Below are positions 14-49,522 of a DNA stretch of 64,000 nucleotides, one piece after another; position 1 is the stretch's first letter; every line of letters begins with the position of its first letter. The stretch comes from an uncultured Thiotrichaceae bacterium (GTDB lineage Bacteria; Pseudomonadota; Gammaproteobacteria; SZUA-229). The notes beneath the pieces were generated by a model. The model made no database searches. It saw nothing but the letters and a program-made list of their open reading frames with translations, and had not been told where the DNA came from. A program made the translations under genes and the position numbers. The DNA lies in contig CAZYYW010000001.1 of assembly GCA_964651445.1 (NCBI GenBank), forward strand, positions 173-64,172. Reading direction: 5' to 3'.

Positions 14-460
14 TTGCCTGTATCCGGTGAGATAGCCCGTTATGATGTATCACGATACCTTGACCTCACCTTATGCAATGAACACAACGCTGGCTTCGAT
101 GCTATTGGCAAGCAACAGCGTCAGGGACAAAAGGTACTGATAAAAAGTAGGATAATTACAGATTCAATAAAATCAGGTCATCGACTTGGACAGATAAATC
201 CAAATGCTAGCTGGGATATTGTCATCCTTGCATTAATGGACAACACTTTTGAGCCTTACGAAATGTATCAGTTAAGCCGTGATCAAGTGATTGACTGTGC
301 TTCAGGAAACAATAAAAAGAACATCACCATTTCCGTGGCAAAATTTAAAGCCATTGGCGACTTGGTTTGGACAAGTAATCAAGATATCATTTATTCAGAT
401 AATAAAGATATAAGTAACGAATATTATAATGAACCGGTAGTCCATTCAGAATATGTTTAA
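14..460 (+). CDS. hypothetical protein; TTG start at 14, and the frame stays open to position 2 so the gene may extend off the left edge
   Basis: Long ORF ending at a convergent hairpin; no recognisable motifs; convergent with fliT. Confidence 0.3.
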   Translation: MPVSGEIARYDVSRYLDLTLCNEHNAGFDAIGKQQRQGQKVLIKSRIITDSIKSGHRLGQINPNASWDIVILALMDNTFEPYEMYQLSRDQVIDCASGNNKKNITISVAKFKAIGDLVWTSNQDIIYSDNKDISNEYYNEPVVHSEYV

Positions 461-506: not shown

Positions 507-827
507 CTAAGCACTGTTCATGGCATACATATTAACCGCATGCCGACCCTTGCTGATGGTTGAAATTTCGCTGCGAGAATTTTCGCGTGCTTTTAGGGTA
601 ATCTTTTCTAGTTGTTTGTTTATATCGATGATTTTCTGTATTTTGTTGTCTATATCAACGACATTATGATGCTGTATCGAACCGGAGAATAATTGCTCAA
701 GCAATTCACTGCGTTTCACTTCTATATCGATGACTTTGTTCCAGTTACCCGCTGCAGCATCTTTTAGCATGCTCTCACTGCACACAATAGCACTCTGTAT
801 TTGTTTATCTTTATTATTCATAGCCAA
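507..827 (-). CDS. fliT: FliT-like flagellar export chaperone (small helical protein)
   Basis: 106-aa helical ORF directly downstream of fliS in the fliD-fliS-fliT position. Confidence 0.45.
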   Translation of the reverse strand: MAMNNKDKQIQSAIVCSESMLKDAAAGNWNKVIDIEVKRSELLEQLFSGSIQHHNVVDIDNKIQKIIDINKQLEKITLKARENSRSEISTISKGRHAVNMYAMNSA

Positions 828-864
828 TGCTCACGTGGTTGTTGTTATCTGGTTAGTAGAAAAA

Positions 865-1296
865 TTATGATGCAACTGAAATATCAACGTCTGTCTGTTT
901 TCTCATATCTTGGGGTATCGATTCCCAGCCAGACTTTATTTCATGCAACAAACCAGAAACCTCATTTAGTATTGAAACATCATTTTTCATGTTTGCTTTT
1001 AATAAACGACCTTCAATATACTCGTAAATATTATCCAGGTTTCTCGCCAGCTCACCGCCAGCTTCGATGTTTAAACTGGATTTCAATCCGCCGATAATGG
1101 CTATCGCTTGTCCGATAACTTCACCTTTTTTAGCCGTTTCCTCACGCGCCATTAATCCTTTAACTATCGCTATTTTACCTAGAGCACCTTCTAGTAACAT
1201 CATCACCAGTCGATGCGGATCGGCATCTGTTACGCCGCTAATTCTGTTTATCTGGTTATAATGTGAGATATTTGTGCCCATTGTTGCAATGCTCAT
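865..1296 (-). CDS. fliS: flagellar export chaperone FliS
   Basis: 143 aa; the LLEGAL...IIGGL helical-bundle pattern typical of FliS; flagellar context. Confidence 0.85.
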   Translation of the reverse strand: MSIATMGTNISHYNQINRISGVTDADPHRLVMMLLEGALGKIAIVKGLMAREETAKKGEVIGQAIAIIGGLKSSLNIEAGGELARNLDNIYEYIEGRLLKANMKNDVSILNEVSGLLHEIKSGWESIPQDMRKQTDVDISVAS

Positions 1297-1439
1297 TCTG
1301 CGCCCTCTATTTTTTAGTTATTTCACTGTCCAATAAAAACCAAACAATTAACCACATGTTTGCTTTGCCTTTTAAATATTCTCATAACGGGTGGCAACTT
1401 AACTAGTCGCTATCTACACATCTGCAATTTAAATGCCAA

Positions 1440-1838
1440 TTACATGTATTCACTAAATAGCTTTATATTGCCACCATCACCCAAGTTTCGAGCAAAGCTT
1501 AAAGCCTCTTCATTTGGGATTTGTCGAATCACTTCATCTGTGGCTAAGTCAATGACTTTAATAACAGTCTTACCGCTATCTTTGTCGACACTAAAATGAA
1601 TTTCACGTTGCACAAGCTGCATAGTTTCATTAATTTTTTTCACTGCTTCGTCAAGTTGCGCTGCATCCACAGCTTCTACCACTGCGGCACTTTGTTCTGG
1701 CTTTGCCGCCTGTGCTGGCAATTCATTACCGAATTGCGGATGATTACGCGCTGAAGCTGTACCATTAACCGGCAATATTCTTTCTGCGGCTCTCTGACTA
1801 ACGTCAATCATCTTGTTATCATCATTGGATATTCTCAT
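1440..1838 (-). CDS. flaG: FlaG family flagellar protein
   Basis: 132 aa; C-terminal KTVIKVIDLATDEVIRQIP FlaG signature; next to fliD and flagellin. Confidence 0.75.
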   Translation of the reverse strand: MRISNDDNKMIDVSQRAAERILPVNGTASARNHPQFGNELPAQAAKPEQSAAVVEAVDAAQLDEAVKKINETMQLVQREIHFSVDKDSGKTVIKVIDLATDEVIRQIPNEEALSFARNLGDGGNIKLFSEYM

Positions 1839-2040
1839 CAGGGTGTCACCTGCTAATTATTTTAAAACATTCGTCCTTACGCTTTATCGACTCAATACCT
1901 GCCTGAAATTTTTTTCAGGATAACGTCTTAGACTTTCATTACTACTAGTAACTATATCGACAGGCTTAAAATTTCCTTTAATCTTGCGCCTATTTGCTCA
2001 ATATTTATCGCCGAAAAAGCGAAATAATCACCGCCATACG

Positions 2041-3408
2041 CTACCTTCGGGAGATTTGAGGTAAATTGGCGAGTTGTTGCGTTAAGAAACTACCTGTCGA
2101 CTGCAACTGCGCCACTAATATATCCATCGCGATGAACTGCGCACTCAGACGCGCTTCTAATGAAGCCATGCGTCTATCTAATACTTCTCGCCTATCGTCT
2201 ATTCCATCTAACCGACTTTGCAGACCATCTCGGCGAGAATCAATAATACCGTCGTCAGCAACATACCCTGTTATCGCGGCAGAAAACCCTTGTGCTATAC
2301 CACCAGAGGAAGAAAAGAAATTCCTTACATCGGATAAATTACTGGCGAGTTTTTCATCAAACACGGTTGCGTCCAGCTTTAAGCTGCCACCATCCCCTAG
2401 TGTGATGCCCAGCTCAGATAAGTTAGAAAATACACCGCCACTGGCACCAGAAGACAGCGCCTGACGCAAGCTATTTTGTATCCCTCTAACCACAGAATCA
2501 CCGTTTAGCGGCCCTGCTATTAAAGTCGATTGATCAAAACCTGATAAACCTTTCATCACACCGATGAGCGTGTTGTAATTCAAGACAAAACTATCGACAT
2601 CTTTTTTAATGGCGTCATTGTCCAGTACCACCGAAAGTGTTTCTGATGAACCTGGTTGCGCACTGTTGAGATTAAAGGTCACACCTGAAATAACATCGGA
2701 AAAATTATTGCTGCCACGTGTCACTGTCTGCGAATCGACTTGTATTACCGCGTCAGATGCCGATATCAGCGTTGTTAAATTGGATGAATCCAGTTGCGTT
2801 AAATCAAACCCAGGCACCGTACCATCATCTGTGGCAAGTACATTAATGGTATTACTTGCGCCCACCTGATCTGAACTTAGAATTAACTGCGTCCCCGAAT
2901 CTACAGTGATTAAAGATGCTCTTACTCCAGGATTATCCGATGCTATATTGATAGCATCGCGTATGCCTTCTAATGTATTGTTGCTACTATCGATGGTGAG
3001 CTGAAAGGTTTCTGCGCCAAGTGATATATCAAGTGTACCGGCACCCATAACCTCGCTACTATCAGTAAAATCCGCCGAACGCAGTTTTTCTGCCTGTGCT
3101 AGTTGTATTACTTCAATGTTATAACTACCTGCAACTGCGGTGTCATCTGTTGTGGCGCTAAACACCTCGTCATTACTGGAACTGGCTTTATAAACCTGGA
3201 ATGCTAATGGATCTTCCAGACGACTTATACTGGTTTGAAAAGCAGACAGTGCGCCTTTAAGTGTGCCGAAGGCCGATAGCTCCGAACCCAAACTGGTTTC
3301 TCGTGTGTTTAATCGTGCATTCACCGGTTCTGCCTCGGCAGCAACTAACTGTGAGACAATGCTATTTATGTCCAGACCTGAACCGATTCCACTTGCAATA
3401 ATTGGCAT
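2041..3408 (-). CDS. fliD: flagellar filament cap protein FliD (HAP2)
   Basis: 455 aa; N-terminal IASGIGSGLDINSIVSQLVAAE...RLNTRETSL is the classic FliD N-terminus; C-terminal heptads. Confidence 0.9.
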   Translation of the reverse strand: MPIIASGIGSGLDINSIVSQLVAAEAEPVNARLNTRETSLGSELSAFGTLKGALSAFQTSISRLEDPLAFQVYKASSSNDEVFSATTDDTAVAGSYNIEVIQLAQAEKLRSADFTDSSEVMGAGTLDISLGAETFQLTIDSSNNTLEGIRDAINIASDNPGVRASLITVDSGTQLILSSDQVGASNTINVLATDDGTVPGFDLTQLDSSNLTTLISASDAVIQVDSQTVTRGSNNFSDVISGVTFNLNSAQPGSSETLSVVLDNDAIKKDVDSFVLNYNTLIGVMKGLSGFDQSTLIAGPLNGDSVVRGIQNSLRQALSSGASGGVFSNLSELGITLGDGGSLKLDATVFDEKLASNLSDVRNFFSSSGGIAQGFSAAITGYVADDGIIDSRRDGLQSRLDGIDDRREVLDRRMASLEARLSAQFIAMDILVAQLQSTGSFLTQQLANLPQISRR

Positions 3409-3578: not shown

Positions 3579-4775
3579 CTACCGAAGCAGGCTCAATACG
3601 TTTTGTGGTATTGAATTTGCTTGCGACAACATGGCAACACCGGCCTGTTGCAGAATCTGATTACGTGTCAAACTTGCTGTTTCTGCAGCAAAGTCAGCAT
3701 CACGAATACGACCACGTGCTGCGCTGGTGTTTTCTGAGTTAATGGCCAGATTATTTACCACACTTTCAAAACGTGTTTGAATTGCACCCAGATCAGCACG
3801 TGCAGTGTTAACCGCTGTTAGCGCTGCATCCATCTGTCCAATTGTTGCTACTGCACCTGTCGCTGTTGATATATCCATGCTGGCAAAGCCATTGGTTACC
3901 GAGGTTGCAGTTGTAGCTGCCGCTAGACCTGTGTTAACGGTTGCAGCGTCTTGATCACCACCGGCGCTGGCAACAAATGCAACAACAATAGCATCTGCCT
4001 TTGCAGCATCACCTGCGTAACTAAGAGTCACTAAATCACTATTCGTCCCGCCCACTGATGCAATAACACCGGTTGTGCCAGAAATTGCATTAATGGCTGA
4101 ACTTACACCGACCGCACGCTCTGCTGCACTAGTAGCCACACCGATAGCGCCGACATTTGTGCCGTTAATGGTAAGTGTGTCTGCTTCAATAGCACCCCAG
4201 TTAACATCAGCAGTGCCTGCTGCAACAGTAGCGCCTGTAGCTGAGGTAGCATTATGATTTTCGCCCAAACTAGAAGATTGTGCATTGACAATGCCGCTAA
4301 TAGCAATCGTTTCACCACGATTAGCACCTACCTGAAAGCTCTGATCAACAAAACTACCATCAAGCAACTTAACACCATTGAAATTTGTTTGTGTCGCCAC
4401 ACGATCAACTTCACTTTTAAGCTGTTGCGCTTCTGCATTCAGTGCTGCACGGTCAGATGCACTGTTTGTTGCATTGGCAGACTGTACCGCTAGTTCACGA
4501 ATACGTTGCAAGGCGCTACTGACACTATCAAGCGAGCCTTCCGCCGTTTGTGCTAAAGAAACACCATCATTGGCGTTACGCATGGCGATATTCATGCCAC
4601 GTATTTGTGTGGTCATTCTTTCTGAAATAGCCAGACCTGCCGCATCGTCTTTTGCACTGTTAATGCGCAAACCAGAGGATAAACGTTGTAGTGATGTCGC
4701 AAGATCCATTGATGATGAAGATAAATTACGCTGCGCGTTTAATGAGGCAACGTTAGTATTAATTGTTAAAGCCAT
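3579..4775 (-). CDS. fliC: flagellin
   Basis: 398 aa; conserved N-terminus (MALTINTNVASLNAQRNL...LSSGLRINSAKDDAAG) and C-terminus (QNVLSLLR); Ala/Thr/Ser/Gly-rich variable centre. Confidence 0.95.
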   Translation of the reverse strand: MALTINTNVASLNAQRNLSSSSMDLATSLQRLSSGLRINSAKDDAAGLAISERMTTQIRGMNIAMRNANDGVSLAQTAEGSLDSVSSALQRIRELAVQSANATNSASDRAALNAEAQQLKSEVDRVATQTNFNGVKLLDGSFVDQSFQVGANRGETIAISGIVNAQSSSLGENHNATSATGATVAAGTADVNWGAIEADTLTINGTNVGAIGVATSAAERAVGVSSAINAISGTTGVIASVGGTNSDLVTLSYAGDAAKADAIVVAFVASAGGDQDAATVNTGLAAATTATSVTNGFASMDISTATGAVATIGQMDAALTAVNTARADLGAIQTRFESVVNNLAINSENTSAARGRIRDADFAAETASLTRNQILQQAGVAMLSQANSIPQNVLSLLR

Positions 4776-4838: not shown

Positions 4839-4865
4839 TTAACGACAGGACTTTAAAAAACTTTA
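4839..4865 (-). promoter_or_regulatory. candidate sigma28 (FliA) promoter for flagellin; minus strand reads TAAAGTTT-N11-GTCGTTAA
   Basis: Minus-strand match to TAAAGTTT-N11-GCCGATAA (8/8 at -35, 6/8 at -10) about 65 nt upstream of the flagellin ATG. Confidence 0.4.
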
Positions 4866-4909: not shown

Positions 4910-6433
4910 TTACATATGTTGACAGCCATAAGGCACTGTCATGATGCCGGAGGGCGATAACTCGTTTACAAAAACATGTAGGTGTTTTTTGTAATGTCTA
5001 CTATTTTCAGACGAAACTTTATACTGCCGAGATTCAGGCAGTGAATACCTCGCTATATTGACCTTATTTTTACTCGTGGCAAAAGCCTGCCCTGATACTT
5101 GCCATTGTATGTTGATAAATTCAAATAACTGCTTACTGACATTCGCCGGGCATGCAATTAACTCTTCATAATTCACCTTATGTATTTTTATCGGCAGAAC
5201 ATCTTCCCAATGCGCCATTAAACGTTGATATTGCTGAAAATATAACGCTATATGTTCCTGATTATATGAATAATCATTTTCTGTCGTAAAGTTTCGAAAA
5301 TAACTGGAGAGACAAACATCAAACGGATTTCTAACACAGTGAATAATTTGCGCCTGTGGATATAACAGTGCAATCAAACCCAGATACAGATAATTTTCTG
5401 GCATTGTATTTATTATTTTTTCTGGTTTCTTGCTTTCGCTGCTAGCAGCAATGTTATTGACCTCATTAAGATAAAACCTTGAATAGTTATTGATAATTTC
5501 AATGTTAAAATCGTTTTTATAAAGCCTGTTAAACCGTTCTGAAATCAGCCTGATTTGATTGCCTTCGCCGATGCTATAGACATCCGCCTTTCTGTTGAGC
5601 ATGTTTTCCACCAGGCTGATGCCTGAACATGGCATACCCACAACAAATACTGGTTGCACGCTATTATTTAACGCATTCCTATCAAACTTATTAAATATGG
5701 CAGGCGTATAGGTGGCAATCCGTTGCGTCATCACGCTTACGTGTTTATCACCGTCAAACATTAAACCCTTGCTCATATTCGCCACCAGATAGTTGGCAAA
5801 GGCTTTATCATAACGACCACTGGCATCGTATATATTGCCTAATGAAAAATAAAAGCTACTACGATCTTCCAGTGACAATTCTGTGTTTTCAAGTAATTTT
5901 TCAATATTAATAACATCCTGATCGCTTAGAATACTGGCATCAATTTCAGCCACGCCTTGCAGATTCTTAGGGTCATCAGGATTTAATTCAAAGGCGTATT
6001 TGTAGTGATGCAGGGCAAGGTCAAGATTACCTTGCCTCAAGTTCAAACGTGCTAATTCTGCATGTGCCTCTGCATTATTTTCGTCTATATTCAACATACA
6101 TATATAATGCAATATGGCATCATTAAAGCGTGAAGCACGGGTATGAACCTGAGCAAGATTTTTATTTGTCTCGATGTTATCTGGGTTTAACTCCCATGCC
6201 ATGTTTAAAAACTCAACAGCCAGTTTTAACATGCCGGCTTGCATTGCAATCAAACCCAAACCATTTAGTACCAAAATATTTTTAGGTTCTAACTGTAACG
6301 CTTTCTGGTAAAGGTAATTTGCCTGCTTCAACTTATTTTCTTCAAAATAGTCATTCGCTTCGAAGATCAGCCTTGCCACATGATTATCATGACGTTTTGT
6401 CTTCTGTTGAATTTTTATTTCTATGCTTTTCAT
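4910..6433 (-). CDS. TPR-repeat protein with a C-terminal sulfotransferase-family domain; putative flagellin-glycan modifying enzyme
   Basis: N-terminal TPR repeats; C-terminal VVGMPCSGISLVENML resembles the 5'-PSB motif and HCVRNPFDV the 3'-PB motif of sulfotransferases; sits between flagellin and flgL. Confidence 0.6.
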   Translation of the reverse strand: MKSIEIKIQQKTKRHDNHVARLIFEANDYFEENKLKQANYLYQKALQLEPKNILVLNGLGLIAMQAGMLKLAVEFLNMAWELNPDNIETNKNLAQVHTRASRFNDAILHYICMLNIDENNAEAHAELARLNLRQGNLDLALHHYKYAFELNPDDPKNLQGVAEIDASILSDQDVINIEKLLENTELSLEDRSSFYFSLGNIYDASGRYDKAFANYLVANMSKGLMFDGDKHVSVMTQRIATYTPAIFNKFDRNALNNSVQPVFVVGMPCSGISLVENMLNRKADVYSIGEGNQIRLISERFNRLYKNDFNIEIINNYSRFYLNEVNNIAASSESKKPEKIINTMPENYLYLGLIALLYPQAQIIHCVRNPFDVCLSSYFRNFTTENDYSYNQEHIALYFQQYQRLMAHWEDVLPIKIHKVNYEELIACPANVSKQLFEFINIQWQVSGQAFATSKNKVNIARYSLPESRQYKVSSENSRHYKKHLHVFVNELSPSGIMTVPYGCQHM

Positions 6434-6461: not shown

Positions 6462-7364
6462 CTACAGATAGTTAAATAATGACAAACCCTGAATTTTTAC
6501 AAAACTTTGTTGCGATGCTTGTAACGACAGTAACTGCTGCTCAAACCTGCTGACGGCTTCTGCATAGTCCAAGTCTTGTAGACCTGAACGATTTTCCTGC
6601 AGTACCAGCGTAAAACTGCTATTCACATTTCTTTGCCCATCAATGGTATTTAAACGGCCACCAATACTTGCGCGAGCATCGTTCACTACGTTGAGCGCGG
6701 AATCTAGGCGACTAAGTGTCACGCCTGATGGTGTATTTGCCTCTAGATCTGTGACAAAATCTTGTATCACTGAAAACATACTGGCATTGCCTCCTGCACC
6801 GTCATCAATTTTCATGAATATGTCGTCACCAGAGTCTCCAACCGATACCTGACTTCTGCTGCCAATTTGTACATTTCGCTGACCCTGGTCACCGTTGTAA
6901 CTAAAATTACCGGAACCGTCATCGGTAAACGGTACGGTATCGGTTTTAAAACCGGCGAATAAATATTCACCACTGGCATCGGTACTGTTTGCTAATTGCA
7001 TCAGAGCATCAATACTGAGCTGCACTTCTGCCACCATCGACAAACGATCACTCGCACTCAAGCTGCCATTATTTGCGTGTACCGAAATTTCACGGATACG
7101 TTGTAAAACATCATTTACTTCGGTTAACACCGCCTCTCCCATAACCAGACGTGTTTCTGCAAAATCGGCATTTCGTTGAAACTGGTTAGTGCTTTCAATC
7201 ACTTTATTTAGATCAAGAATTCGAGTGGCTGCGGTGGGGTCATCACTGGGCGTTAAAACACGCTTGCCGGTGGCAATCTGCTGCTGCGTTTTAGCCAGTT
7301 CAGCCTGAGTATTTAACATGGCATTCACTGCTTGTTGAAATATTTGTGCTGTCGAGATACGCAT
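6462..7364 (-). CDS. flgL: flagellar hook-associated protein 3 FlgL
   Basis: 300 aa; MRISTAQIFQQ... N-terminus and flagellin-like termini; follows flgK. Confidence 0.9.
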   Translation of the reverse strand: MRISTAQIFQQAVNAMLNTQAELAKTQQQIATGKRVLTPSDDPTAATRILDLNKVIESTNQFQRNADFAETRLVMGEAVLTEVNDVLQRIREISVHANNGSLSASDRLSMVAEVQLSIDALMQLANSTDASGEYLFAGFKTDTVPFTDDGSGNFSYNGDQGQRNVQIGSRSQVSVGDSGDDIFMKIDDGAGGNASMFSVIQDFVTDLEANTPSGVTLSRLDSALNVVNDARASIGGRLNTIDGQRNVNSSFTLVLQENRSGLQDLDYAEAVSRFEQQLLSLQASQQSFVKIQGLSLFNYL

Positions 7365-7366
7365 TT

Positions 7367-9337
7367 TTATCTCCTTATCGAATTAAGTAAGGTATCAAAC
7401 AATGAACTCGCCACTGCGATAACTTGTGCCGATGCCTGATAGGCTTGTTGAAAACGAATTAAGTTTGCAGCTTCATCATCCAAATTTACGCCTGAAACAG
7501 AATCACGCGATGCAATGGCATGTTCCAGCACTCGGTTTTGTGACAGACTGCTGAGTTCTGCCTGTTTGGTTGCGGTTCCAACATCGGCGACTAAGGTGCT
7601 GTAACTGTCATTAATACTGGCAGTGCCATTTGACATTGATTTGTTATTTAGCACCGCAGACAGCAACAACATATTGCGGTTATCACCAACACCGCCGGTG
7701 TTATATTCACTGCGAAACTCATCCCCTATGTCGGGCACACCGGTCAAGCGCATACTGTATCCGTGGTCAATCCCAGAAGGTGTCGGAAACACATCAGCAC
7801 CCGTCGCCGGGTTGTAGATAATTCCCGACTCCAGTAAAACTGGACTAGCAGGATTGGCGTTGTTATATATATCGTAACTAGTCGCACTGGTAAAACGCAG
7901 CATTACCGGCGGTGATAACTGACCGGCAGTGCTTTGAAAAACGCTATTATTAATGTCACTCACCACACCTGATGACATTTCGCCACTGCCAGTATTCGCC
8001 GCAGAAGCAATGGTTCTTAATGGTGCAGCAGCGGCAATTTGTCTATCGTTTGCCAATAACATCTGCATGTCGGCAGCACCATTACGTGTGGGTTGTATTA
8101 AATAAGTATCACCGGCGACTGGCGAAGAAGTTATTTCAAAACGTAATCCGTCTGCAATAAAAGGGTCTAGTGCGGTTCCCGCTCCGCTCATCGGTACCAC
8201 TTGATTGGTATCGTTTTGCGATAACTGCCAAGCACCGGAGGTATATCGCATGGTGTAGTCGTTGTTCGTCAGTTCACCAATATTATTGAATGCCACGCTG
8301 ACTTTCCCCGGCGTTCCCGCTAGCGTTAGTGCTTGTGGCTGTGAAATCGTGAACATTTCAGTGCCCAGTGCTCCATCCAAATCCATGCCCTGTGTTTGCT
8401 GCTCATTGATAAAGTGAGCCATGCTGATCGCGGTTAAACCCAAACTGTTACTTGCAGGGTTAAGCATATTGTCTCGAAAGTTTAATGTGCCACCTAAACG
8501 CCCGCCTGAAAGTTGTTCAGTAATCGGAACCAAGGTGCCACCGCTACCCCTTATCGCCACACCAAGCGTACCCGGATCACTGGCAACGATAAAGGCTTCC
8601 AGGGTTGTGGGTCGGTTACCAACAACCAACATTTGGCCACTGCCTGCCATTACATTAATAGCACCATCGTCTTGCTGTACTGTGGTAACTGAAACCAGTT
8701 CTGATAAATTTCGTATCAATAAATCCCGTTGGTCGAGCAAGTCATTGACTGGCTGACCTCCTAACCGGTTTTGGGTGACAACAATGGATTCATTTAATGT
8801 TGCGATGGAAGTGCTTAAGGTGTTAATTTCGCTAACGCTGCTGCGGATATCGCCATTAACCTGATTGCGCACACCATTCATCCAAGATGACAATTCGTTA
8901 AAGTGTGTCGCAAGATATTGTGACTCCGCCAGTAACACTTGACGAGACGCGGATGATGTTGGCGAGTGGGAAACATCTTGCATTGCATTAAAAAAACGTT
9001 GGATGGATGTTGCAACCCCTGTGTCAGGGTCTGCAATAACTTGATCAATCTGTGATGCCAATGTATGAAAAGCCTGAAACTCTGCTGCCGCTGAGGCACT
9101 GTTACGCACATTGGCTTCAATAAAACTACTAAAGGAACGTGTAATACTAGTAGCCTGTACACCCGTACCGATAGATCCAAAACCGCTAAGTTGCGGCACT
9201 CGAGTACTCAGCTCTACACTTTGTCTACTGTAACCTTCGGTGTTCACATTTGCGATATTATGTCCAATGGTAGTGAGCGAACGCTGAAATGCCTGTAAGC
9301 CTGAACTACCAATACCAAGTAAACTGCTGCCTGACAT
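7367..9337 (-). CDS. flgK: flagellar hook-associated protein 1 FlgK
   Basis: 656 aa; N-terminal SLLGIGSSGLQAFQRSLTTIGHNIANVNTEGYSRQ; C-terminal LIRFQQAYQASAQVI. Confidence 0.9.
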   Translation of the reverse strand: MSGSSLLGIGSSGLQAFQRSLTTIGHNIANVNTEGYSRQSVELSTRVPQLSGFGSIGTGVQATSITRSFSSFIEANVRNSASAAAEFQAFHTLASQIDQVIADPDTGVATSIQRFFNAMQDVSHSPTSSASRQVLLAESQYLATHFNELSSWMNGVRNQVNGDIRSSVSEINTLSTSIATLNESIVVTQNRLGGQPVNDLLDQRDLLIRNLSELVSVTTVQQDDGAINVMAGSGQMLVVGNRPTTLEAFIVASDPGTLGVAIRGSGGTLVPITEQLSGGRLGGTLNFRDNMLNPASNSLGLTAISMAHFINEQQTQGMDLDGALGTEMFTISQPQALTLAGTPGKVSVAFNNIGELTNNDYTMRYTSGAWQLSQNDTNQVVPMSGAGTALDPFIADGLRFEITSSPVAGDTYLIQPTRNGAADMQMLLANDRQIAAAAPLRTIASAANTGSGEMSSGVVSDINNSVFQSTAGQLSPPVMLRFTSATSYDIYNNANPASPVLLESGIIYNPATGADVFPTPSGIDHGYSMRLTGVPDIGDEFRSEYNTGGVGDNRNMLLLSAVLNNKSMSNGTASINDSYSTLVADVGTATKQAELSSLSQNRVLEHAIASRDSVSGVNLDDEAANLIRFQQAYQASAQVIAVASSLFDTLLNSIRR

Positions 9338-9342: not shown

Positions 9343-9783
9343 CTACTCCTGATTACCAATGAAGGATGTTTGTATTGAGGAAGTCGAGCGGTTTATCTGT
9401 TTTTGTATTAATTCAAAATCACCCGCTAAAGGTTTTTCCTCAGGCTTTTGTTGTTTACCAACCATGTCACGTTCCAGCATGTCAGCGATTCCCAGACCAC
9501 CGCCACCACCACTATTAACCAGCTCCAATGCTATTTGTTTATCAAACATTCCTTGGTAAAAACGAGTTTGATCGGATTCTGTAGAGTCACCGCTTATTGT
9601 TGCTTCACGCATTGATTTAAGCATCATCTGTAAAAACAATGCTTCAAACTGTTGCGCGACTTCTTTCGTTGCCGCTTGCGACTGTACGCCATCGTTTTGA
9701 CCCGAGACTTTGGCGCGCAACTTCTGCAAACCACTAAAGTCGGTATAAACACCTGCATCGGCAATGTTATGCATACTATTCAT
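9343..9783 (-). CDS. flgJ: FlgJ rod-binding (rod-cap) protein, single-domain; no C-terminal glucosaminidase domain; likely start MNSMHN at 9783 (ORF track offers 9816)
   Basis: FQMMLKSMR rod-binding motif; N-terminus aligns with E. coli FlgJ from the 9783 start; only about 147 aa. Confidence 0.8.
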   Translation of the reverse strand: MNSMHNIADAGVYTDFSGLQKLRAKVSGQNDGVQSQAATKEVAQQFEALFLQMMLKSMREATISGDSTESDQTRFYQGMFDKQIALELVNSGGGGGLGIADMLERDMVGKQQKPEEKPLAGDFELIQKQINRSTSSIQTSFIGNQE

Positions 9784-9784
9784 T

Positions 9785-10933
9785 TTAGATAACCACCAAC
9801 TCTGCGTGCAGTGCACCCGCCATTTTTAATGCTTCTAATATGGCAACAAGATCACCGGGGGCGGCACCTACCTGATTGACCGCACGTACGATGTCATTCA
9901 AATCAACACCGGGGTCAAATAAGAACATGCGGTTATCATCGGTACTAACATTAAGCTGAGAATCTTGCGTCACTTCTGTATTGCCCACTCGGGCAAAAGC
10001 ATTCGGCTGACTGACAGCTTCACTCTCTTTAATGGTTACCACCAAATTGCCATGTGAAACAGCGGCAGCGGAAACACGTACCGCACTACTAATAACCACA
10101 GTACCGGTTCTTGAATTAATAATGACACGTGCGGCGGCTTCACCTGGTGAAACTTCTATATTTTCAACCATGGATAAAAACGCAATTTTATCCTTTTGCC
10201 TAGTTGGCGCTCTGACTTCAATAGAAATTGGGTCAATGGCTCTCGCCGTACCCTGACCAAAGATTTCATTGATCGCATTCGACATTCTGTTGGCAGTGGT
10301 AAAGTCTGCTGAAAAAAGATTCAACACTATTTGATTTTTACCGCCCAATGTATTCTTAATGGTACGCTCAACAATTGCGCCTTTAGGAATACGCCCGACA
10401 CTGGGTATGTTAATGGTAATTTTTGAACCGTCTGAACCTTCAACACCAAGCCCACCCACAATTAAATTACCCTGTGCAATGGCATAAACCTGACCATCAG
10501 CGCCTTTTAATGGTGACATTAATAAGGTGCCGCCTCGTAAACTCTTGGAGTTTCCAATTGACGATGCAGTAACGTCAATTCTTTGACCTTTTTTGATGAA
10601 AGGCGGCAAGGTAGCATGCAACATTACCGCTGCAACATTTTTTGGCTGCGGATTCACACCCGGTGGAATAACCACACCTAATTGCGATAACATATTTTTC
10701 AAGCTTTGCGCGGTGAAAGAAACCTGACCAACGGAATCGCCACTACCATCAAGACCTACAATCAAACCATAACCAATTAGCTGATTATCACGCATGCCCT
10801 GCACTGTTGAAAGATCTTTAATGCGCTCTGCACTAACCGTTGTTACCGGAACTAATAAGACAAAAATTAACGTTAGGGCTATAAATAGTATATTTCTATC
10901 AAATACCGATTTTGTTGTATGATAATTTTTCAT
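9785..10933 (-). CDS. flgI: flagellar P-ring protein FlgI (likely start MKNYH at 10933, TAATG-coupled to the flgH stop)
   Basis: Signal peptide plus the [12 protein letters not shown] motif. Confidence 0.9.
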
Positions 10934-16442: not shown

Positions 16443-16946
16443 TCAGGCTTGTATCAACGAACGTTTATTTGCTGATCTTACGGATTGGCCGGTATTGTCA
16501 TACAGTTCAGAAGCGGCCGATGCCGCCGGAGAAATTCCTTGTAAAATGTCCAGCGCATGACGTGACTGTTTCGAAATGATTTCGACAATGCTGCCATTAA
16601 CACGATTTCTATCACGGCATTTTTCTGCAACATCTATAAGACTGCTCCATAATTCGGACAGCTGTTTGTTGTCACTGAAGACTTTCTTGTTTTCTTGTGG
16701 CGCTAACGTTTTTTCACCTGCCATGTTCATATTGCAGGATTCAAGCAAGCTCTCTCGCTGCCTGGAGATCACTTCGAGTTGCAGCATCCGTTCCTGTTTT
16801 TCACCAACCACGGCTTCTAATATTTCAACATCGTTTTCAGAAAGCACCTTATACTCATGTTCCAATGACTGCAAAAGCAACCGGGCACATTCCAATTCCT
16901 GCTCGAATACCTGCTTAATTGCATGCTGCTGATTTTTTAAGGGCAT
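16443..16946 (-). CDS. flgN: FlgN-like flagellar export chaperone
   Basis: 167-aa helical protein in the flgA-flgM-flgN position; pattern similar to FlgN. Confidence 0.65.
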   Translation of the reverse strand: MPLKNQQHAIKQVFEQELECARLLLQSLEHEYKVLSENDVEILEAVVGEKQERMLQLEVISRQRESLLESCNMNMAGEKTLAPQENKKVFSDNKQLSELWSSLIDVAEKCRDRNRVNGSIVEIISKQSRHALDILQGISPAASAASELYDNTGQSVRSANKRSLIQA

Positions 16947-17331: not shown

Positions 17332-17425
17332 AATTTAACTCCTATTATTCTTTTTTTACTATCACACACATTAACGACCATTAATAATAAAACTTTAATA
17401 TTTAATATAAATAGACAAATATTGA

Positions 17426-18157: not shown

Positions 18158-19297
18158 CTAACCATGTTGTAGTGGATTTTTTCTAATCCATGCATCATTC
18201 AAGCCGTATTTATCTGCTACATCCAGCACAAAAGCATCGGCTTGCTGTCTATTTGTAAAACCATGCACGGTAAGACGATACACGGCTTGACCGTTAACCA
18301 TTGCCTGTTTTATTTTAGGTGATAAGTTTTCATCTGTTATTTGTGTGGCTAACATTTCTGCTTTATTTTTACGCTTGAATGAAGCGATAGCAACGCTGTA
18401 GCGGTTGTCTACAAGCAGTGACTGTGTTGTTGCCGCCGCCTGCTGACTAGCCGCCAACAAGTCCTTCTGAACATCTGCAATATTGCCAAGCGGCGGGTTC
18501 GTTTCTTTCAGTTTTATTTTTACAGATTGCAGTTGGGTTTTTAAGGACGCTATTTCATCCACCAATGTGGCGGCCGATGTGCTAACCAATTTGTCGGCAT
18601 GAGTCTCTGCTGCAAGCGCCGTTATTATTTCCGCAGAGGATTCTTTCGTTGCTAAAGACTGATTAGCCGTTTTTACCAACTGCAAATCAATTTGCATCGG
18701 TAGTAGTTTTTCAGTTATATCTATCTGGTTAGTCGATATTTCGGCATTTTCAGGTACGACTTTATTTTGCCATTTATCTTCATAAACAATCAATGATTTT
18801 TCCAACGCATTCGTGCGCACATTAAAGTGGAAGAAACTAATCACCAGCAAGCTAATGACAGTCAGTAACAACAGTAATTGAAACCAACTACCGATGCCTG
18901 TCTTTAACAGCGTTGTTTTTGATTGTGAAAAAAAATCCGGTTTTTTTTCTCGCTTCAGACTGGCTGTTGATAACGATACAATATCTTCTTGCTGTTTTTT
19001 GTCGGTGTTTGTATTAGCCGGTGATTGCTTTACCTTCTGTTTCACCATGAAATCACGCACACTCATTGGTTTACCAGCCTCAGCGGCATCCGCTGGTCCG
19101 TCATCCTGAATCCCCTGCAGTATACTGCTTAGATTCGGGTTTTCCGATGAGATATAATTTTCAGTTGCTGTTATCACTGTTTTATCCCCTACCTGCGTTT
19201 TATTTTTACGACTTTCTCTACGCAATATCGCTGTAAAATCAGAAATAGTCGGATCTGATTCATCTTGCGCTGGGTACATGTTGCTCATGGCAACCAT
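18158..19297 (-). CDS. single-pass membrane protein with a C-terminal SPOR (peptidoglycan-binding) domain
   Basis: One TM helix (SWFQLLLLLTVISLLVISFF); C-terminal AVYRLTVHGFTNRQQADAFV SPOR-like fold; 1-nt overlap with the upstream GGDEF gene. Confidence 0.5.
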   Translation of the reverse strand: MVAMSNMYPAQDESDPTISDFTAILRRESRKNKTQVGDKTVITATENYISSENPNLSSILQGIQDDGPADAAEAGKPMSVRDFMVKQKVKQSPANTNTDKKQQEDIVSLSTASLKREKKPDFFSQSKTTLLKTGIGSWFQLLLLLTVISLLVISFFHFNVRTNALEKSLIVYEDKWQNKVVPENAEISTNQIDITEKLLPMQIDLQLVKTANQSLATKESSAEIITALAAETHADKLVSTSAATLVDEIASLKTQLQSVKIKLKETNPPLGNIADVQKDLLAASQQAAATTQSLLVDNRYSVAIASFKRKNKAEMLATQITDENLSPKIKQAMVNGQAVYRLTVHGFTNRQQADAFVLDVADKYGLNDAWIRKNPLQHG

Positions 19298-20229
19298 TAC
19301 ACGTTACCTGATTCCCTGCTGCCATCAGGCAAATCACCGTAAATACGATTCTTCCCAAGTATTTTTGCATGATATAACGCGGTATTAACTCGATCGAATA
19401 ATTTTGTCGCGGTATCATCATAAGCAACGGTAACAACGCCGGCACTCAAAGTGAAGGCAATATCATTGCCTTGATATTGACAGCTATCAGACAAAACATA
19501 GTCTTTTATTCTTCTCGCCGCTTCTACCGATTCAGGCTTACTGGTATGTGGCAAGAAGACAAGAAACTCGTCGCCGCCATTACGATAAACAACATCACTG
19601 TAACGTGCTTTCTTTTCAATTCGTCGCGCCACTTCCACCAAAACTGCGTCACCCGCTGACTTACCGTGTTGCTTATTAATGCCTTTCAAGTCATCCAGAT
19701 CAAACATTAATAAAGAGAATGGTTTTTTATAGCGTTGCGCTCTTTTTATTTCCAGCTCAACGATGTCATGGTAATAACTGCCATTTCGTAAACCTGTAAG
19801 CTCATCACGTTGCGCAAAGCGAATGACCTGTTGAAAGCGTAAAGCGTTACGCAAAGGTAAAGCCAGACCCGCAATCATCACTTCGATGGTTTCCAGTTCT
19901 GCTTTTACAAACTCAGCATCACGGGTAATGGTTAAACTGCCCAGTGAACGCTGAGCATAAGTGAGCACATAATTGCACCGATGATCACCCGCTGTGCCAT
20001 TTATCAAGGAGGTTTTTGTTAACTCATCCTTATACTCAATACTGTCAAAGGGTATCTGTGCTTGCAGATCGCTGATAAAGGTGTCAAATAGTTGGTAGAA
20101 ATCCAATGCTTCATGCAAGCGATTAATGAAACTTGTTAGCCATGCGCTGCGGACGGTGTCCATGCACATATTGCTTTCATTAGCGATTTTTCTGTTATTT
20201 GCATGCAACTGTATAATACGTTCAGCCAT
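19297..20229 (-). CDS. GGDEF-domain diguanylate cyclase with an N-terminal sensory domain of unknown type
   Basis: GGDEF motif (NGGDEF), I-site RYSD five residues upstream, DELTGL linker. Confidence 0.85.
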   Translation of the reverse strand: MAERIIQLHANNRKIANESNMCMDTVRSAWLTSFINRLHEALDFYQLFDTFISDLQAQIPFDSIEYKDELTKTSLINGTAGDHRCNYVLTYAQRSLGSLTITRDAEFVKAELETIEVMIAGLALPLRNALRFQQVIRFAQRDELTGLRNGSYYHDIVELEIKRAQRYKKPFSLLMFDLDDLKGINKQHGKSAGDAVLVEVARRIEKKARYSDVVYRNGGDEFLVFLPHTSKPESVEAARRIKDYVLSDSCQYQGNDIAFTLSAGVVTVAYDDTATKLFDRVNTALYHAKILGKNRIYGDLPDGSRESGNV

Positions 20230-20266
20230 CTGTGTTTCCTCGAAGCATTAATCTTACGTTACAACA

Positions 20267-20283
20267 AAGCAACAACTGTGCCA
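20267..20283 (-). promoter_or_regulatory. sigma54 promoter driving the GGDEF-SPOR-flgA-flgM-flgN operon; minus strand reads TGGCACagttgTTGCT
   Basis: Minus-strand TGGCAC-N5-TTGCT with GG-N10-GC spacing, about 45 nt upstream of the GGDEF ATG. Confidence 0.55.
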
Positions 20284-20446
20284 GAACACCTCGTACAGTA
20301 ATAACAGTGGCTTAGCATAAAAAAATTTTATTAACGACAATTTTTTGACGCTAGACGGCAGGCTGTATTCTGCACAATGAAGCAATAGGCGGCAAAGTTT
20401 TGCCGCTATGTTAGAAACCCTTAGGATTGAGGGTGGATTAAATACA

Positions 20447-21850
20447 CTAAGAAAGGAGCCCTATAGAGGGTTTTGCATGTGCCATCCCTGGTTTATACGG
20501 CAAACTAAAAGTAAAAATCGCTCCCGCTTCACCGCTAACATTGCCGGCCGTTATCATGCCGCCGTGGTAGTGGATGATTTCCCGGCAAATTGCCAAACCT
20601 AGGCCGGTTCCACCAACGCCATTTACGGTTTTACTGGATTGTTCAAACTCATTAAAGATGCTTTCCAGTTCAGCTTCCGGTATACCGATGCCCTGATCGC
20701 GGATGATTAGCGATATCGCCGACACAGCACCCTTCATGGCATACTCCGTTTGCACATCAATTTCAGTTCTTTCAAAATTCACCTTGATGCTGGCGCCTGG
20801 CGGTGAAAACTTTATCGCATTCGACAACAAATTCTTGATGACCTGGTTTATCTTAATATTGTCAAACATTGCGAGGGTTTCTACTGTTGCCGGTACAACC
20901 TCTATTTCTAACGCTTTGCCGCTAAACAGTGGGCTTAATTCATCAATCGCTTTTGCCAATGTTGTTTGCAAGTCATTTTCTGTAACGATAAACTGCATAC
21001 GACCCGCTTCTAATTTAGAGAGATCAAGCAGGTCATCTAATAAGCCGAGTAAACGTTGTCCACTATCATTAATACGCATAAAATAATTACTGATTTTTGT
21101 ATTGATGTTAACGTCTACTTTTTCTGCGCCCAAACTGGAAAAGCCCAGTATTGCATGCATTGGTGTACGCAATTCATGCGACATTTTGGCTAAAAAATCT
21201 GATTTGGCACGGTTTGCTAATTCCGCCTTTTCACGCTGTAACAACAATTCATGTTCACGCTCATGGGAACGCACTTGCATCTTCAGCATTTCCGTCCAGT
21301 TTTGACAGTACGTTTTTGTGTTTTTCAATAAAAATAAAACCAGCAGAAATAACATGACCTCTAAAAAAACCAGATGATAACCCTGAATATACGTCTGTAG
21401 TTGCAAAGAAATCATCAGTGGCGTTATTACAATCAATATAAAAATCACCGAAAACTGCATCTGATACGATAAAGTCGTAGTAGCACCCGTCACTAATGTC
21501 GCGATGACCATGACTAATAACAACACGCTCTGACCATCAACCACCGGTATCAGAATAAGGCTTAAAGCGCCCCAGCAAGTCGCCGAAAAGAGGGTCCCAA
21601 ATAGTATAAACAGCCTCGCCCTTTTAAAATTTACCCTGCTCTCTCTTTTTGCTTTTTTATATGACAGTGCGGCAAGCAGGCGCAATAGGTCTACGCCAAG
21701 AATAGTGACAAACCAAAAATGGAATGCCATTGATTCGACTTTTGTGCTGAACATTAAATATAAAGCAATAACCGCACTAGCCATGATGGCAATCGAATAA
21801 AATCGGTTACTGTTAATAAGGTCAATTTGTGCTTCTTCAACTTCTGTCAT
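20447..21850 (-). CDS. membrane sensor histidine kinase (6-TM N-terminal sensor, HisKA, HATPase_c)
   Basis: H-box MSHELRTPMHAILGF; ATP-lid GTGLGLAI; about 200-aa polytopic N-terminal domain. Confidence 0.85.
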   Translation of the reverse strand: MTEVEEAQIDLINSNRFYSIAIMASAVIALYLMFSTKVESMAFHFWFVTILGVDLLRLLAALSYKKAKRESRVNFKRARLFILFGTLFSATCWGALSLILIPVVDGQSVLLLVMVIATLVTGATTTLSYQMQFSVIFILIVITPLMISLQLQTYIQGYHLVFLEVMLFLLVLFLLKNTKTYCQNWTEMLKMQVRSHEREHELLLQREKAELANRAKSDFLAKMSHELRTPMHAILGFSSLGAEKVDVNINTKISNYFMRINDSGQRLLGLLDDLLDLSKLEAGRMQFIVTENDLQTTLAKAIDELSPLFSGKALEIEVVPATVETLAMFDNIKINQVIKNLLSNAIKFSPPGASIKVNFERTEIDVQTEYAMKGAVSAISLIIRDQGIGIPEAELESIFNEFEQSSKTVNGVGGTGLGLAICREIIHYHGGMITAGNVSGEAGAIFTFSLPYKPGMAHAKPSIGLLS

Positions 21851-22178
21851 GGATATTATTTTTTTATTATTGTCATTACTTTACATTTTTTTACATAAAG
21901 CTTATTGCCAGTCTCTGGCGAATACTTATTATGTTAGGCAATCTTGGATTGATTCTGAATAAGCAGATTGCACGTCAGTTCCACGAATTAATCCGAGGTT
22001 CCTTAAAACACACTACAAAAACTTAACATATATTGAGAATAATATATTAAAGTTTAATGGCTTATATCCCGATATTGTTAACGATACTATAAATAACAAT
22101 ACTCTGGCTGTCATTATTAAATGATTCAAATGGACGTAACTATGAACACTAACTCAGTTTCAGAAATATTCATAAGCA

Positions 22179-26030: not shown

Positions 26031-26033
26031 CCC

Positions 26034-26852
26034 ATGACGGTACACCATATTATCAAGCAGGAAATAGCACGTCAGCCTGACCTTCCGGTTTTACCCCCCG
26101 GCATATCTTCATTATTAAAAATGCTAAACGACGATGATATTGGCTACAGCGAGCTTGCCGACAAACTTGAAAATTTTCCATCCATTGCAATAAAAATAGT
26201 CTCAACGGCCAATTCTGCCTGGGCATCACCGGGTACGCCTATTACCACATTACGCAGTTGCTGCGCGCGCATTGGTGTCCCCGTGGTTCGCAGCATCGCC
26301 ATTGCAATCGCGGTGGCGCAAATATTTGACCCCAGTCGCTGCCCGGCATTTGATGCCAAAAAATATTGGTTAAGCGCCCTGTTAACTGCTGAAGCTGCAC
26401 AGCTATGTGCAAAAGACAATAATGACGTCTGTTCCGACACCGCCCGATTAGCCGGGCTGCTGCATAACATTGGTTTGTTATGGCTGGCCACACAAAAACC
26501 CAAAGCAACAAGCAAAGCCATCAACTTTAAAAAAAGCAATGAAGCACTTTCGCTCGCTCACTGTATGGCACAGTATGTAGAAGTGGATTATTTTACTGCC
26601 GGTGGTTATCTAGCCTCCTTTCTCGAACTGCCAGAACAATTGTCCGAGCTTATCGCCTGCCCCGCTTTAAATATAGTGCAGGATGACATCGCTATGCAGA
26701 ATCATCACCGTGCCTTACAGCTCGCCAGCAGCGCACTAACGGCTAACAATACTGCTGAGCATGACGAAATAATAGAGGATCCCTGCTTTGATCCTCTAAT
26801 GCATAAATTACCCGGTATCGAAACCATGGCGCGCAGCCTATTTTTTTCTTAA
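26034..26852 (+). CDS. HDOD-domain protein; start is 4 nt after the upstream stop, so translationally coupled to the HK-GGDEF-EAL gene
   Basis: HDOD signature LPVLPPGISSLLKMLNDDD...; HD-like HNIGLL. Confidence 0.8.
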   Translation: MTVHHIIKQEIARQPDLPVLPPGISSLLKMLNDDDIGYSELADKLENFPSIAIKIVSTANSAWASPGTPITTLRSCCARIGVPVVRSIAIAIAVAQIFDPSRCPAFDAKKYWLSALLTAEAAQLCAKDNNDVCSDTARLAGLLHNIGLLWLATQKPKATSKAINFKKSNEALSLAHCMAQYVEVDYFTAGGYLASFLELPEQLSELIACPALNIVQDDIAMQNHHRALQLASSALTANNTAEHDEIIEDPCFDPLMHKLPGIETMARSLFFS

Positions 26853-38471: not shown

Positions 38472-38497
38472 TTAATCACTCTTTGTTATTATTCAGG

Positions 38498-41586: not shown

Positions 41587-41588
41587 AG

Positions 41589-44162: not shown

Positions 44163-44518
44163 TGCCCAACCCCGACTTTATCCCTCGTTTCAGTATTGAT
44201 TCCACAAGTATAATTGATGGTAAATAACTGCTCAAAATTAGCTACTTTCAAAATGGTATCAACTTGTTTGCTGGGGCGTTCTATAAATACTGCGCCACCA
44301 TGACACTTTGCATGCTCACGCAGCAACAGCAACATGCCCAATGCAGAACTGTCCATATAATTAGTATCGCTTAAATCAACGTAGTAGGACATGCTGTCTT
44401 GGCCTGTAATTCGACGATAGCTATCCCTGAATGCTTGGGACACTTTATAATCAAATCGTCCACTTATATTGATGTGTACTTTTTTTCCGTCGCTAGACAC
44501 TTCTTGACTTACAGACAT
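44159..44518 (-). CDS. STAS-domain anti-sigma-factor antagonist (HsbA/RsbV-like)
   Basis: 119 aa; STAS fold with conserved phospho-serine region DSSALGMLLLL; 4-nt overlap with the downstream gene. Confidence 0.8.
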   Translation of the reverse strand: MSVSQEVSSDGKKVHINISGRFDYKVSQAFRDSYRRITGQDSMSYYVDLSDTNYMDSSALGMLLLLREHAKCHGGAVFIERPSKQVDTILKVANFEQLFTINYTCGINTETRDKVGVGH

Positions 44519-44751
44519 AATACAGGCTCCCAGTTTCTTTTAGAAATAACACTACTACTGAAACTATCGACCATCTGTGGATAATGTTTAGTGGTTTTTA
44601 TAAAATCCAGGTTTTTAAATCATACTGCCGGACAATGTTGCTTTCGCAATATCAACAAAGCAGCTTCATTGCGACATCCGTTAGACGACAGTGAGATAGA
44701 TAAAGCCGTGCCATACTCGGCGTATCGAACTAACTCAAAGTAAGTAGGTAG

Positions 44752-49335: not shown

Positions 49336-49522
49336 TTTTTATCCCACACCCATATTATATTTCTGAAAATGAAACGAGCAATGTATTATATACTCAAGTA
49401 AATCATACTATAGCTGTCATCGCCACATGATTATGTTTCTTTAGTCGAAAATGCTCATTCGTAAAATAATGACAATGCTAGCCATAATGCATTGCCCATT
49501 CTAAACCTCACAGGCTTTTATT

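Follow-up and report, generated by a model that had tools for sequence, protein, structure and literature searches.

We examined a gene that encodes a tetratricopeptide repeat (TPR) protein with a sulfotransferase-like (ST) C-terminal half, located on the minus strand at positions 4910 to 6433 of a 64,000-nucleotide stretch of DNA from an uncultured Thiotrichaceae bacterium (GenBank assembly GCA_964651445.1, contig CAZYYW010000001.1, positions 173 to 64,172; we call this whole stretch the window). The clade to which the gene belongs, not described before, has a fixed place between flgL and fliC in marine, vent and sediment Gammaproteobacteria, and because of this synteny the case for a functional link between the clade and the flagellar filament is strong. 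For the window protein itself, the reading that we place first, and to which we give about an even chance, is that it is a catalytically eroded descendant, a putative pseudoenzyme with a non-catalytic, TPR-mediated role at the filament stage.

The open reading frame (ORF) starts with ATG and encodes 507 amino acids, exactly as the first-pass annotation had it. The other structural proposals of that annotation also held: Pfam finds the N-terminal TPR repeats and the C-terminal sulfotransferase-like domain, and the gene does lie in a late flagellar operon between the flagellin gene and flgL, with both neighbors on the same strand. The features of the gene and its product are as follows.

4910..6433, minus strand: the TPR and sulfotransferase-like gene, stop codon included (ORF list, Pfam and full-length AlphaFold2 [AF2] model).
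5684..6409, minus strand: TPR domain, residues ~9-250, about six to seven helical hairpins (Pfam TPR families and DSSP of the model).
5777-5815, minus strand (5774-5815 including Met220): clade-specific motif RYDKAFANYLVAN in the TPR domain, residues 207-219, found in relatives P0001-P0078 and not from P0079 onward.
5099..5671, minus strand: sulfotransferase-fold domain, similar to tyrosylprotein sulfotransferases (TPSTs), residues 255-445 (PF13469, domain model, Foldseek and profile against PDB).
5612..5638, minus strand: degenerate 5'-phosphosulfate-binding loop (P-loop) GMPCSGISL, with Cys269 (nucleotides 5627-5629) in place of Arg and Ile272 in place of Thr (TPST alignments and family table).
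5564..5569, minus strand: Gly289-Glu290, of which Glu290 aligns with the catalytic-base Glu of TPST and is kept (profile alignment, aaGE against cGEE).
5399..5413, minus strand: INTMP, with Thr343 in place of the transition-state Lys (HMMER alignment, family table and profile).
5303..5341, minus strand: 3'-phosphate-binding (3'-PB) segment HCVRNPFDVCLSS, with Arg368 and Ser376 kept (alignments and family table).
4988..5080, minus strand: eroded C-terminal motif KNKVNIARYSLPESRQYKVSSENSRHY (family alignment; low-confidence part of the model, with predicted local distance difference test [pLDDT] of 30-37).

Sulfotransfer_3 (PF13469) matches residues 261-445 at E = 1.2e-34 (120.9 bits against a cut-off of 27), which is the outcome of the profile search of the C-terminal domain that had been proposed as a check. 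Sulfotransfer_1 matches as well (7e-10), and residues ~9-215 are covered by several TPR families (TPR_1 at 3.5e-17, TPR_2 and TPR_11). The full-length AF2 model has a pLDDT of 84 and a predicted TM score (pTM) of 0.77, and the AlphaFold model of the ST domain by itself has a pLDDT of 86.6 and a pTM of 0.85. The gene is not an assembly artefact, because the identical protein sequence is present in an independent assembly (Logan SRR9822617, locus L079).

A homology search returned 378 relatives of the window protein. About 78 of these, 500-550 amino acids long and 35-63% identical, form a tight clade into which the window protein fits over its full length; outside it are longer TPR-rich proteins at ~26-31% identity. 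Two sequence markers, YD[EK]AFANYxVAN in the TPR domain and R[CS]SFY[FY][AS]LG, characterize the clade and do not occur in P0079-P0120, and the window protein carries both (as YDKAFANYLVAN and RSSFYFSLG). The order flgL - ST - fliC is found in 14 of the 14 distinct clade loci (31-63% identical) whose contigs span both neighbors, and flgL lies directly upstream of the ST gene in every other clade locus whose contig extends upstream. Source names, where given, are Thiotrichaceae or Gammaproteobacteria metagenome-assembled genomes (MAGs) or hydrothermal-vent metagenome. Scanning metagenomes with the clade-specific TPR motifs yielded 14 loci, several of them short, which extend the association table and are too few for a formal comparative test. 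A contig scan with the full-length family alignment gave, among the matches listed, almost only non-flagellar TPR-sulfotransferases at 25-32% identity, and was used as an outgroup and context control and not for the clade itself. The matches listed from reference genomes include 77 more distant TPR-sulfotransferase loci, of which only three have flagellar genes nearby: L034 (Ferruginivarius sediminum), L063 (an alphaproteobacterial MAG) and L072 (a Phycisphaeraceae MAG). Each has canonical non-clade TPR-sulfotransferases adjoining flagellin genes (fliC products of 482-785 amino acids), as tandem pairs in L063 and L072; because these loci also adjoin flagellin genes, they suggest that the association between sulfotransferase and flagellin arose more than once.

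The window copy departs from a working enzyme at specific positions. Catalysis by TPSTs relies on the P-loop Arg as the general acid toward the 5'-phosphosulfate, on a Glu as the base and on a Lys that stabilizes the transition state; Ala mutants of tick TPST Arg74, Glu95 and Lys154 (Arg78, Glu99 and Lys158 in human TPST2) lose activity, and the Arg and the Lys are broadly conserved in sulfotransferases (PMC10951654). The P-loop of the window protein reads PCSGIS against the canonical PRSGTT (GMPCSGIS versus GMPRSGTT), with Cys269 opposite tick TPST Arg74. Thr343 stands opposite tick TPST Lys154 without a gap, at a site where canonical relatives have DKMP and TPSTs have NKDP. Glu290 falls opposite the second Glu of TPST GEE in the profile alignment (the pairwise alignment, which has a gap there, is shifted by one residue). 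At the C-terminal site, canonical relatives carry KRxVNTASxxQVRxPxYxxSxxRWxxY, and the core of this motif, T[AS]S..QVR.P.Y..S..RW, is replaced by NIARYSLPESRQYKVSSENSRHY in the window copy. We attribute no catalytic Ser to the lost motif, since Ser285/Ser286 of TPST were not mentioned where we looked for them in the literature. By alignment, then, two of the three residues needed for catalysis by TPST-type enzymes (the Arg and the Lys) are missing, and the window copy is predicted to be without sulfotransfer activity. Given failure at two of three catalytic residues, we would not file the protein as an active sulfotransferase, despite its membership of the fold. The first-pass annotation had pointed to motifs resembling those that bind 3'-phosphoadenosine 5'-phosphosulfate (PAPS), which proves partly right: Glu290, Arg368 and Ser376 are there, and the P-loop Arg and Thr, the Lys and the C-terminal motif are not. 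It had also named a lack of PAPS-binding residues on alignment as evidence against its proposal, and on this point the result is divided, with the Arg and Lys gone and the 3'-PB Arg and Ser present.

Losses of this kind recur throughout the clade. The P-loop Arg, the Glu, the Lys, the 3'-PB Arg and the Ser are all intact in 41 of 41 non-clade homologs; among the 78 clade members the Arg is kept in 47, the Glu in 61, the Lys in 62, the 3'-PB Arg in 65, the Ser in 72 and the C-terminal motif in 31 (compared with 38 of the 41 non-clade proteins), and only 31 of 78 keep all six features. The replacements differ by subgroup. Cys takes the place of the Arg in the window's group, Tyr, Asn or His in a third group, and Gln in another, which has lost the 3'-PB Arg as well; Asp or Phe occurs at this position in single sequences of the window's larger group, and a further group keeps Arg, Glu and Lys and has lost the C-terminal motif. 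For eroded pairs with unsaturated synonymous divergence, the ratio of nonsynonymous to synonymous substitution rates (dN/dS) is 0.08-0.16 in the ST domain, against 0.09-0.12 in canonical pairs, and 0.07-0.13 in the TPR domain. Among canonical pairs, identity is higher in the ST domain than in the TPR domain (76.5 versus 68.4% in one example and 71 versus 55% in another). Of the seven eroded pairs, six have a TPR domain whose conservation equals or exceeds that of the ST domain (86 versus 79.5% and 77 versus 68%, for example), the exception being L082-L103 (TPR 76.6%, ST 78.5%). These patterns indicate that the eroded copies are functional proteins in which constraint has shifted away from catalysis.

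The state of the ST gene also varies with the type of flagellin encoded beside it. Loci with a fully canonical ST gene have two tandem short flagellins of 274-278 amino acids, in five of five distinct loci (L001, L084, L088, L089 and L090), in the order fliC-fliC-flaG-fliD. Loci with an eroded ST gene have one long flagellin of 357-398 amino acids and the order fliC-fliD-flaG in 10 of 11 cases (the window, L080, L082, L086, L087, L091, L098, L103, L106 and L107). The association is significant by Fisher's test when phylogeny is not corrected for (p = 0.0014). The two flagellin types, encoded in loci that otherwise share their synteny, differ throughout domains D0 and D1, beyond an insert of ~105 amino acids in the long type. 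Short flagellins have three conserved Tyr residues, in GLY[ST]xER, in the tip loop IxAYG (the site of the long-type insert) and in VQSYAEN; at these sites the long type has an Ala, the insert and an Asn, and its one Tyr falls at no conserved position. The three short-type Tyr residues are candidate acceptor sites for a TPST-like enzyme.

A tree of FlgK, FlgL and FlgI recovers two sister pairs of mixed state, L089 (canonical) with L082 (eroded) and L090 (canonical) with L086 (eroded), each in 100 of 100 bootstraps, and gives monophyly of either state 0/100 support; a tree of the TPR domain agrees with this interleaving. Because the states interleave, because the replacement residues vary from group to group, and because an intact motif set cannot plausibly be regained, we read erosion as independent, having occurred at least three times, and each time, on the present loci, alongside a long flagellin. 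One conflict involves the flanking proteins FlgK, FlgL and FlgI, which group L089 with L082, and the ST gene, which places L082 with L087; it points to recombination, or to exchange of a module comprising the ST and filament genes, near the flgL/ST boundary.

The surroundings of the ST gene in the window comprise the following elements.

6462..9337, minus strand: flgK-flgL, encoding the hook-filament junction proteins, with flgK at 7367-9337 (Pfam, NCBIfam).
4839..4865, minus strand: sigma-28 (FliA)-type promoter TAAAGTTT-N11-GTCGTTAA, in the 134 nucleotides that separate the ST stop codon from the start codon of fliC (exact pattern match).
3579..4775, minus strand: flagellin of the long type, 398 amino acids, with the ~105-residue insert at the tip of D1 and a single non-conserved Tyr (Pfam, NCBIfam and flagellin alignment).
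507..3408, minus strand: fliD, flaG, fliS and fliT (filament cap and export chaperones), 3' of fliC in the order typical of long-flagellin loci (Pfam and locus comparison).

Upstream of the ST gene on the same strand lie flgE-F-G-H-I, a short flgJ, flgK and flgL (the last at 6462-7364, TIGR02550, 1.8e-93), and the flagellin downstream matches Flagellin_N (3e-44) and Flagellin_C (2e-27); no second flagellin and no second sulfotransferase was found in the window. From the stop codon of flgL to the ST start codon is 28 nucleotides, in which we found no terminator-like site, so cotranscription of flgL and ST is likely. The pattern TAAAGTTT-N11-GTCGTTAA is a close match to the sigma-28 consensus, with three matches counted in the window against a chance expectation of 0.25; beside the one upstream of fliC, an exact match occurs at 17371-17397 on the minus strand and lies upstream of a region with flgN (16443-16946) and probably a small flgM. 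Because the ST gene abuts flgL and a sigma-28-type site precedes fliC, the ST gene looks like the tail of the flgKL unit, with fliC driven by a late promoter of its own.

The ST gene has a lower GC content than its surroundings (0.37 versus 0.44-0.47), and we considered horizontal acquisition as the cause. The gene is 6-10% below its neighbors in the window and in L080-L090, with a similar GC content at third codon positions. We rejected acquisition and attribute the dip to amino acid composition, because the third positions match those of the neighbors and the dip is common to every related locus.

Several other observations concern the wider window. The FlgJ homolog (9343-9816, minus strand) is short, at 157 amino acids, and relatives with the same short form have only a Rod-binding domain recorded; FlgJ of L084 has 301 amino acids and a Glucosaminidase domain. 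The hydrolase for peptidoglycan is presumably provided in trans. Beyond fliT, on the opposite strand, lies a small ORF that matches DUF6998 weakly, in the window (14-460, plus strand), in L084 (17253-17726) and in L107 (13073-13567). Genes for cyclic di-GMP and phosphorelay signaling are unusually dense around the flagellar regions (19297-26852 and 39880-51967), and include GGDEF, a 1283-residue HisKA-REC-GGDEF-EAL hybrid, HDOD, REC-GGDEF-EAL, hybrid kinases, and a REC-SpoIIE protein with an anti-sigma-like HATPase_c_2 protein. A phage-type integrase adjoins a DUF4172-Fic protein (37434-39598, minus strand), and the two, which may be a small mobile element, sit between ZnuA/ABC-3 genes and the signaling cluster.

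The nearest solved relatives of the ST domain are human TPST1 and TPST2 and tick TPST (PDB 5wri, 3ap1 and 8w5z). A profile of the domain searched against PDB finds TPST1 at 5e-16, tick TPST at 8e-15 and TPST2 at 2.5e-12, with weaker matches to CurM-type polyketide synthase sulfotransferases (5e-8) and cytosolic SULTs (2e-5). Foldseek with the ST-domain model places TPSTs at all of ranks 1-13 (E ~1e-8, TM ~0.55), and the matches to heparan-sulfate 3-OST and NDST are weaker, at ~5e-5 to 2e-4. Both searches were run with the ST domain as sole input because full-length Foldseek and full-length-alignment profile searches were swamped by TPR matches (OGT, SPY and designed TPRs) and were uninformative on the ST half. 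Because TPSTs are closest by both sequence profile and fold, and carbohydrate sulfotransferases are far weaker, we classify the ST half, on profile and model evidence, as of the protein-sulfotransferase type, with no recognizable carbohydrate sulfotransferase character. Canonical clade members have in common with TPSTs the 5'-phosphosulfate-binding loop of PRSGTT type, the Glu base, the Lys and the 3'-PB Arg and Ser. The window protein differs in that the TPST Arg and Lys are Cys and Thr, and TPSTs differ from it in having no TPR domain and in being eukaryotic Golgi enzymes, whereas the window protein is bacterial and cytoplasmic, with its gene in a flagellar operon.

The best functional analogy is FlmG of Caulobacter crescentus, a cytoplasmic flagellin O-glycosyltransferase that acts before export and has the same layout, in which flagellins are bound by an N-terminal TPR domain and offered to a modifying domain at the C-terminus (PMC7591256). 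The catalytic domain of FlmG is of GT-B type and transfers pseudaminic acid, whereas the C-terminal half of the window protein has a sulfotransferase fold, and we claim no catalytic homology. O-GlcNAc transferase and SPINDLY, the top fold matches of the full-length model, match through the TPR superhelix only; their TPR arrays likewise deliver proteins to a C-terminal transferase, with catalytic domains unrelated to the ST domain. Although we use both systems for comparison, the difference in catalytic fold means that the window protein is not a member of the FlmG or O-GlcNAc transferase families. The class II TPR chaperones of type III secretion systems (LcrH/SycD and SctY) are small TPR proteins that hold secretion substrates, resembling the non-catalytic role that we propose. 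They give weak NCBIfam matches to residues 100-158 (E 1e-8, 35 versus 104.8 bits), and because these scores are far below the family cut-offs we take them as generic TPR similarity and not as membership.

In the mechanism that we propose for the pseudoenzyme, transcription of the ST gene probably takes place at the end of the flgKL unit, immediately ahead of flagellin synthesis driven by sigma-28. The TPR superhelix would then bind a filament-stage substrate, which we infer to be, most likely, unfolded flagellin, and the folded, inactive ST domain would serve as a scaffold or as a residual nucleotide-binding module (nucleotide binding may persist through the intact 3'-PB motif). The window protein would in this way have an escort, holding or quality-control role before FliS-dependent export. 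Intact members of the clade would act in the modular manner of FlmG, using a TPST-like domain, with short flagellin itself probably the acceptor. Of all this, what the analysis shows is the architecture, the constant position, the TPST-like fold, the loss of the Arg, Lys and C-terminal motif, purifying selection on eroded copies and the link to flagellin type; inactivity, the partner and the escort-type role are our interpretation.

A number of points weigh against this reading. The window copy retains the Glu base, the 3'-PB Arg and Ser and the Ser-Gly backbone of the P-loop, and may for that reason still bind PAPS or 3'-phosphoadenosine 5'-phosphate (PAP), with weak or altered catalysis possible; its predicted inactivity is read from its residues. 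Cys recurs at the Arg position in P0001-4, 8, 13, 27, 57 and 76, and could be a selected alternative and not a neutral loss. Instead of flagellin, the partner bound might be FlgK, FlgL or FliD. The coupling of state and flagellin type has one exception, the eroded locus L105, whose flagellins are short. Finally, the trees are neighbor-joining trees with limited taxon sampling, and the conflict among L087, L082 and L089 means that recombination complicates the count of erosion events.

The alternatives differ in what they make of the ST domain. It is possible, if at lower probability than the pseudoenzyme reading, that the intact members are dedicated protein sulfotransferases acting on short flagellin composed of D0 and D1 only, with the window protein as their pseudoenzyme descendant. 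The TPR domain of an intact member would capture short flagellin and the TPST-like domain would sulfate it directly, perhaps on the three short-type Tyr residues; the window protein would have kept its flagellin handling after the outer domain of the long flagellin replaced or covered the acceptor sites. We think it unlikely that the window protein is itself a protein sulfotransferase that is still active on Tyr, Ser or Thr of flagellin through a variant active site (with Cys269 or nearby basic residues compensating). The TPST-like fold and sequence, the retained Glu and 3'-PB residues, purifying selection on the ST domain and the recurrence of Cys in the window's subgroup all favor such an enzyme, but the Arg and the Lys, each essential in TPSTs (PMC10951654), are both gone, and the long flagellins offer a single Tyr at a non-conserved position. 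Sister eroded groups have moreover lost the Glu (to Ser, Asn, Ala, Lys, Thr or Asp) or the 3'-PB Arg (to Ala or Gly), so constraint appears to be relaxed rather than redirected. Improbable, in our estimation, is a non-catalytic sensor in which the ST domain binds PAPS, PAP or adenosine 5'-phosphosulfate and, by way of the TPR domain, links filament assembly to the status of sulfur nucleotides. The window subgroup does keep Arg368, Ser376 and the P-loop backbone while losing catalytic side chains, the ST domain is under purifying selection, and the related locus L082/L083 belongs to a MAG whose annotation is Thiotrichaceae, a family of sulfur bacteria; this proposal is, however, purely inferential, and because the Gln subgroup has also lost the 3'-PB Arg, nucleotide binding is not a requirement across the clade.

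We give still less weight to the model put forward in the first-pass annotation, in which an active PAPS-dependent sulfotransferase modifies an O-linked glycan on the Ser/Thr-rich variable domain of flagellin. The Sulfotransfer_3 match is well over the Pfam cut-off, and the annotation's description of the variable region as rich in Ser, Thr and Ala is a fair one (residues 166-315 are 23% Ala, 14% Thr, 13% Gly and 10% Ser). The gene also occupies a slot directly upstream of fliC in which the flagellin glycosylation islands of Pseudomonas have modification genes (fgt1/fgt2, with vio genes; PMC3927599), but those islands encode glycosyltransferases and sugar-biosynthesis enzymes, as opposed to the single eroded gene of another enzyme class found here. 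No glycosyltransferase, sugar-nucleotide, nonulosonic-acid or PAPS-synthesis family was found by Pfam in the 38 window ORFs scanned (several ORFs of at least 150 amino acids being outside that scan), and no glycosyltransferase, sugar-synthesis or PAPS family was found among the called genes of related loci. The non-flagellar products of the 38 ORFs are cyclic di-GMP and histidine-kinase signaling proteins, ParA/ParB, ZnuA/ABC-3, an integrase and Fic; MotA/B, FlhF and a FleN-like ParA-family ATPase are also among them. Intact clade enzymes, furthermore, accompany short flagellins, which lack a variable domain altogether. What survives of the model is the link to the flagellar filament, through synteny; glycan sulfation is unsupported, because the scans show no glycan or PAPS genes, the domain is TPST-like with carbohydrate sulfotransferases distant by fold, and the catalytic Arg and Lys and the C-terminal motif are lost. 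The least probable of the readings is that the window copy is a functionless remnant heading to pseudogenization after a switch of flagellin type. It would account for the multiple independent losses of catalytic residues and for the faster evolution of the ST protein relative to flanking flagellar proteins (56% versus 68-78% identity in L080, FlaG aside; 45% versus 65-77% in L082/L083; 37% versus 59-73% in L084, where FliD is at 36%). Against it, the ORF is intact and its length is conserved in all eroded lineages despite sequence differences of up to ~55%, the AF2 models are confident, and dN/dS is 0.07-0.16 across both domains in eroded pairs; it was on these ratios and the intact ORFs that we rejected the eroded copies as decaying pseudogenes.

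Known flagellin modifications are glycosylation and lysine methylation. The literature that we searched held nothing relevant on flagellin sulfation or a flagellar sulfotransferase, and its sole co-mention was of a sulfotransferase listed among TPR-containing domains excluded from a screen. To our knowledge, the bacterial sulfotransferase RaxST of Xanthomonas oryzae has no TPR domain and is not linked to the flagellum. It is a PAPS-dependent protein sulfotransferase, described as the first tyrosine sulfotransferase of a prokaryote to have been characterized biochemically, and its loss affects motility-related proteins and leaves flagella-dependent motility unaffected (PMC4892823, PMC4646787); we liken it to the window protein by description and not by sequence.

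Across many uncultured Gammaproteobacteria, these results define a gene that is conserved and unannotated and that keeps a fixed slot within the filament operon, and they caution that 'sulfotransferase' is probably a misnomer for the window copy. The repeated, coupled erosion and the family-level hypothesis were unexpected; the organisms are uncultured, and everything functional is inferred. The clade appears to offer a natural experiment, in which catalytic decay has repeatedly accompanied a change of flagellin type while the protein was kept under purifying selection, and TPR-linked modifying enzymes may accordingly prove to have a flagellin-handling function that is separable from catalysis. 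The intact enzymes may sulfate short flagellins directly, and if they do, theirs would be the first sulfated bacterial flagellin and a second kind of bacterial protein-tyrosine sulfation.

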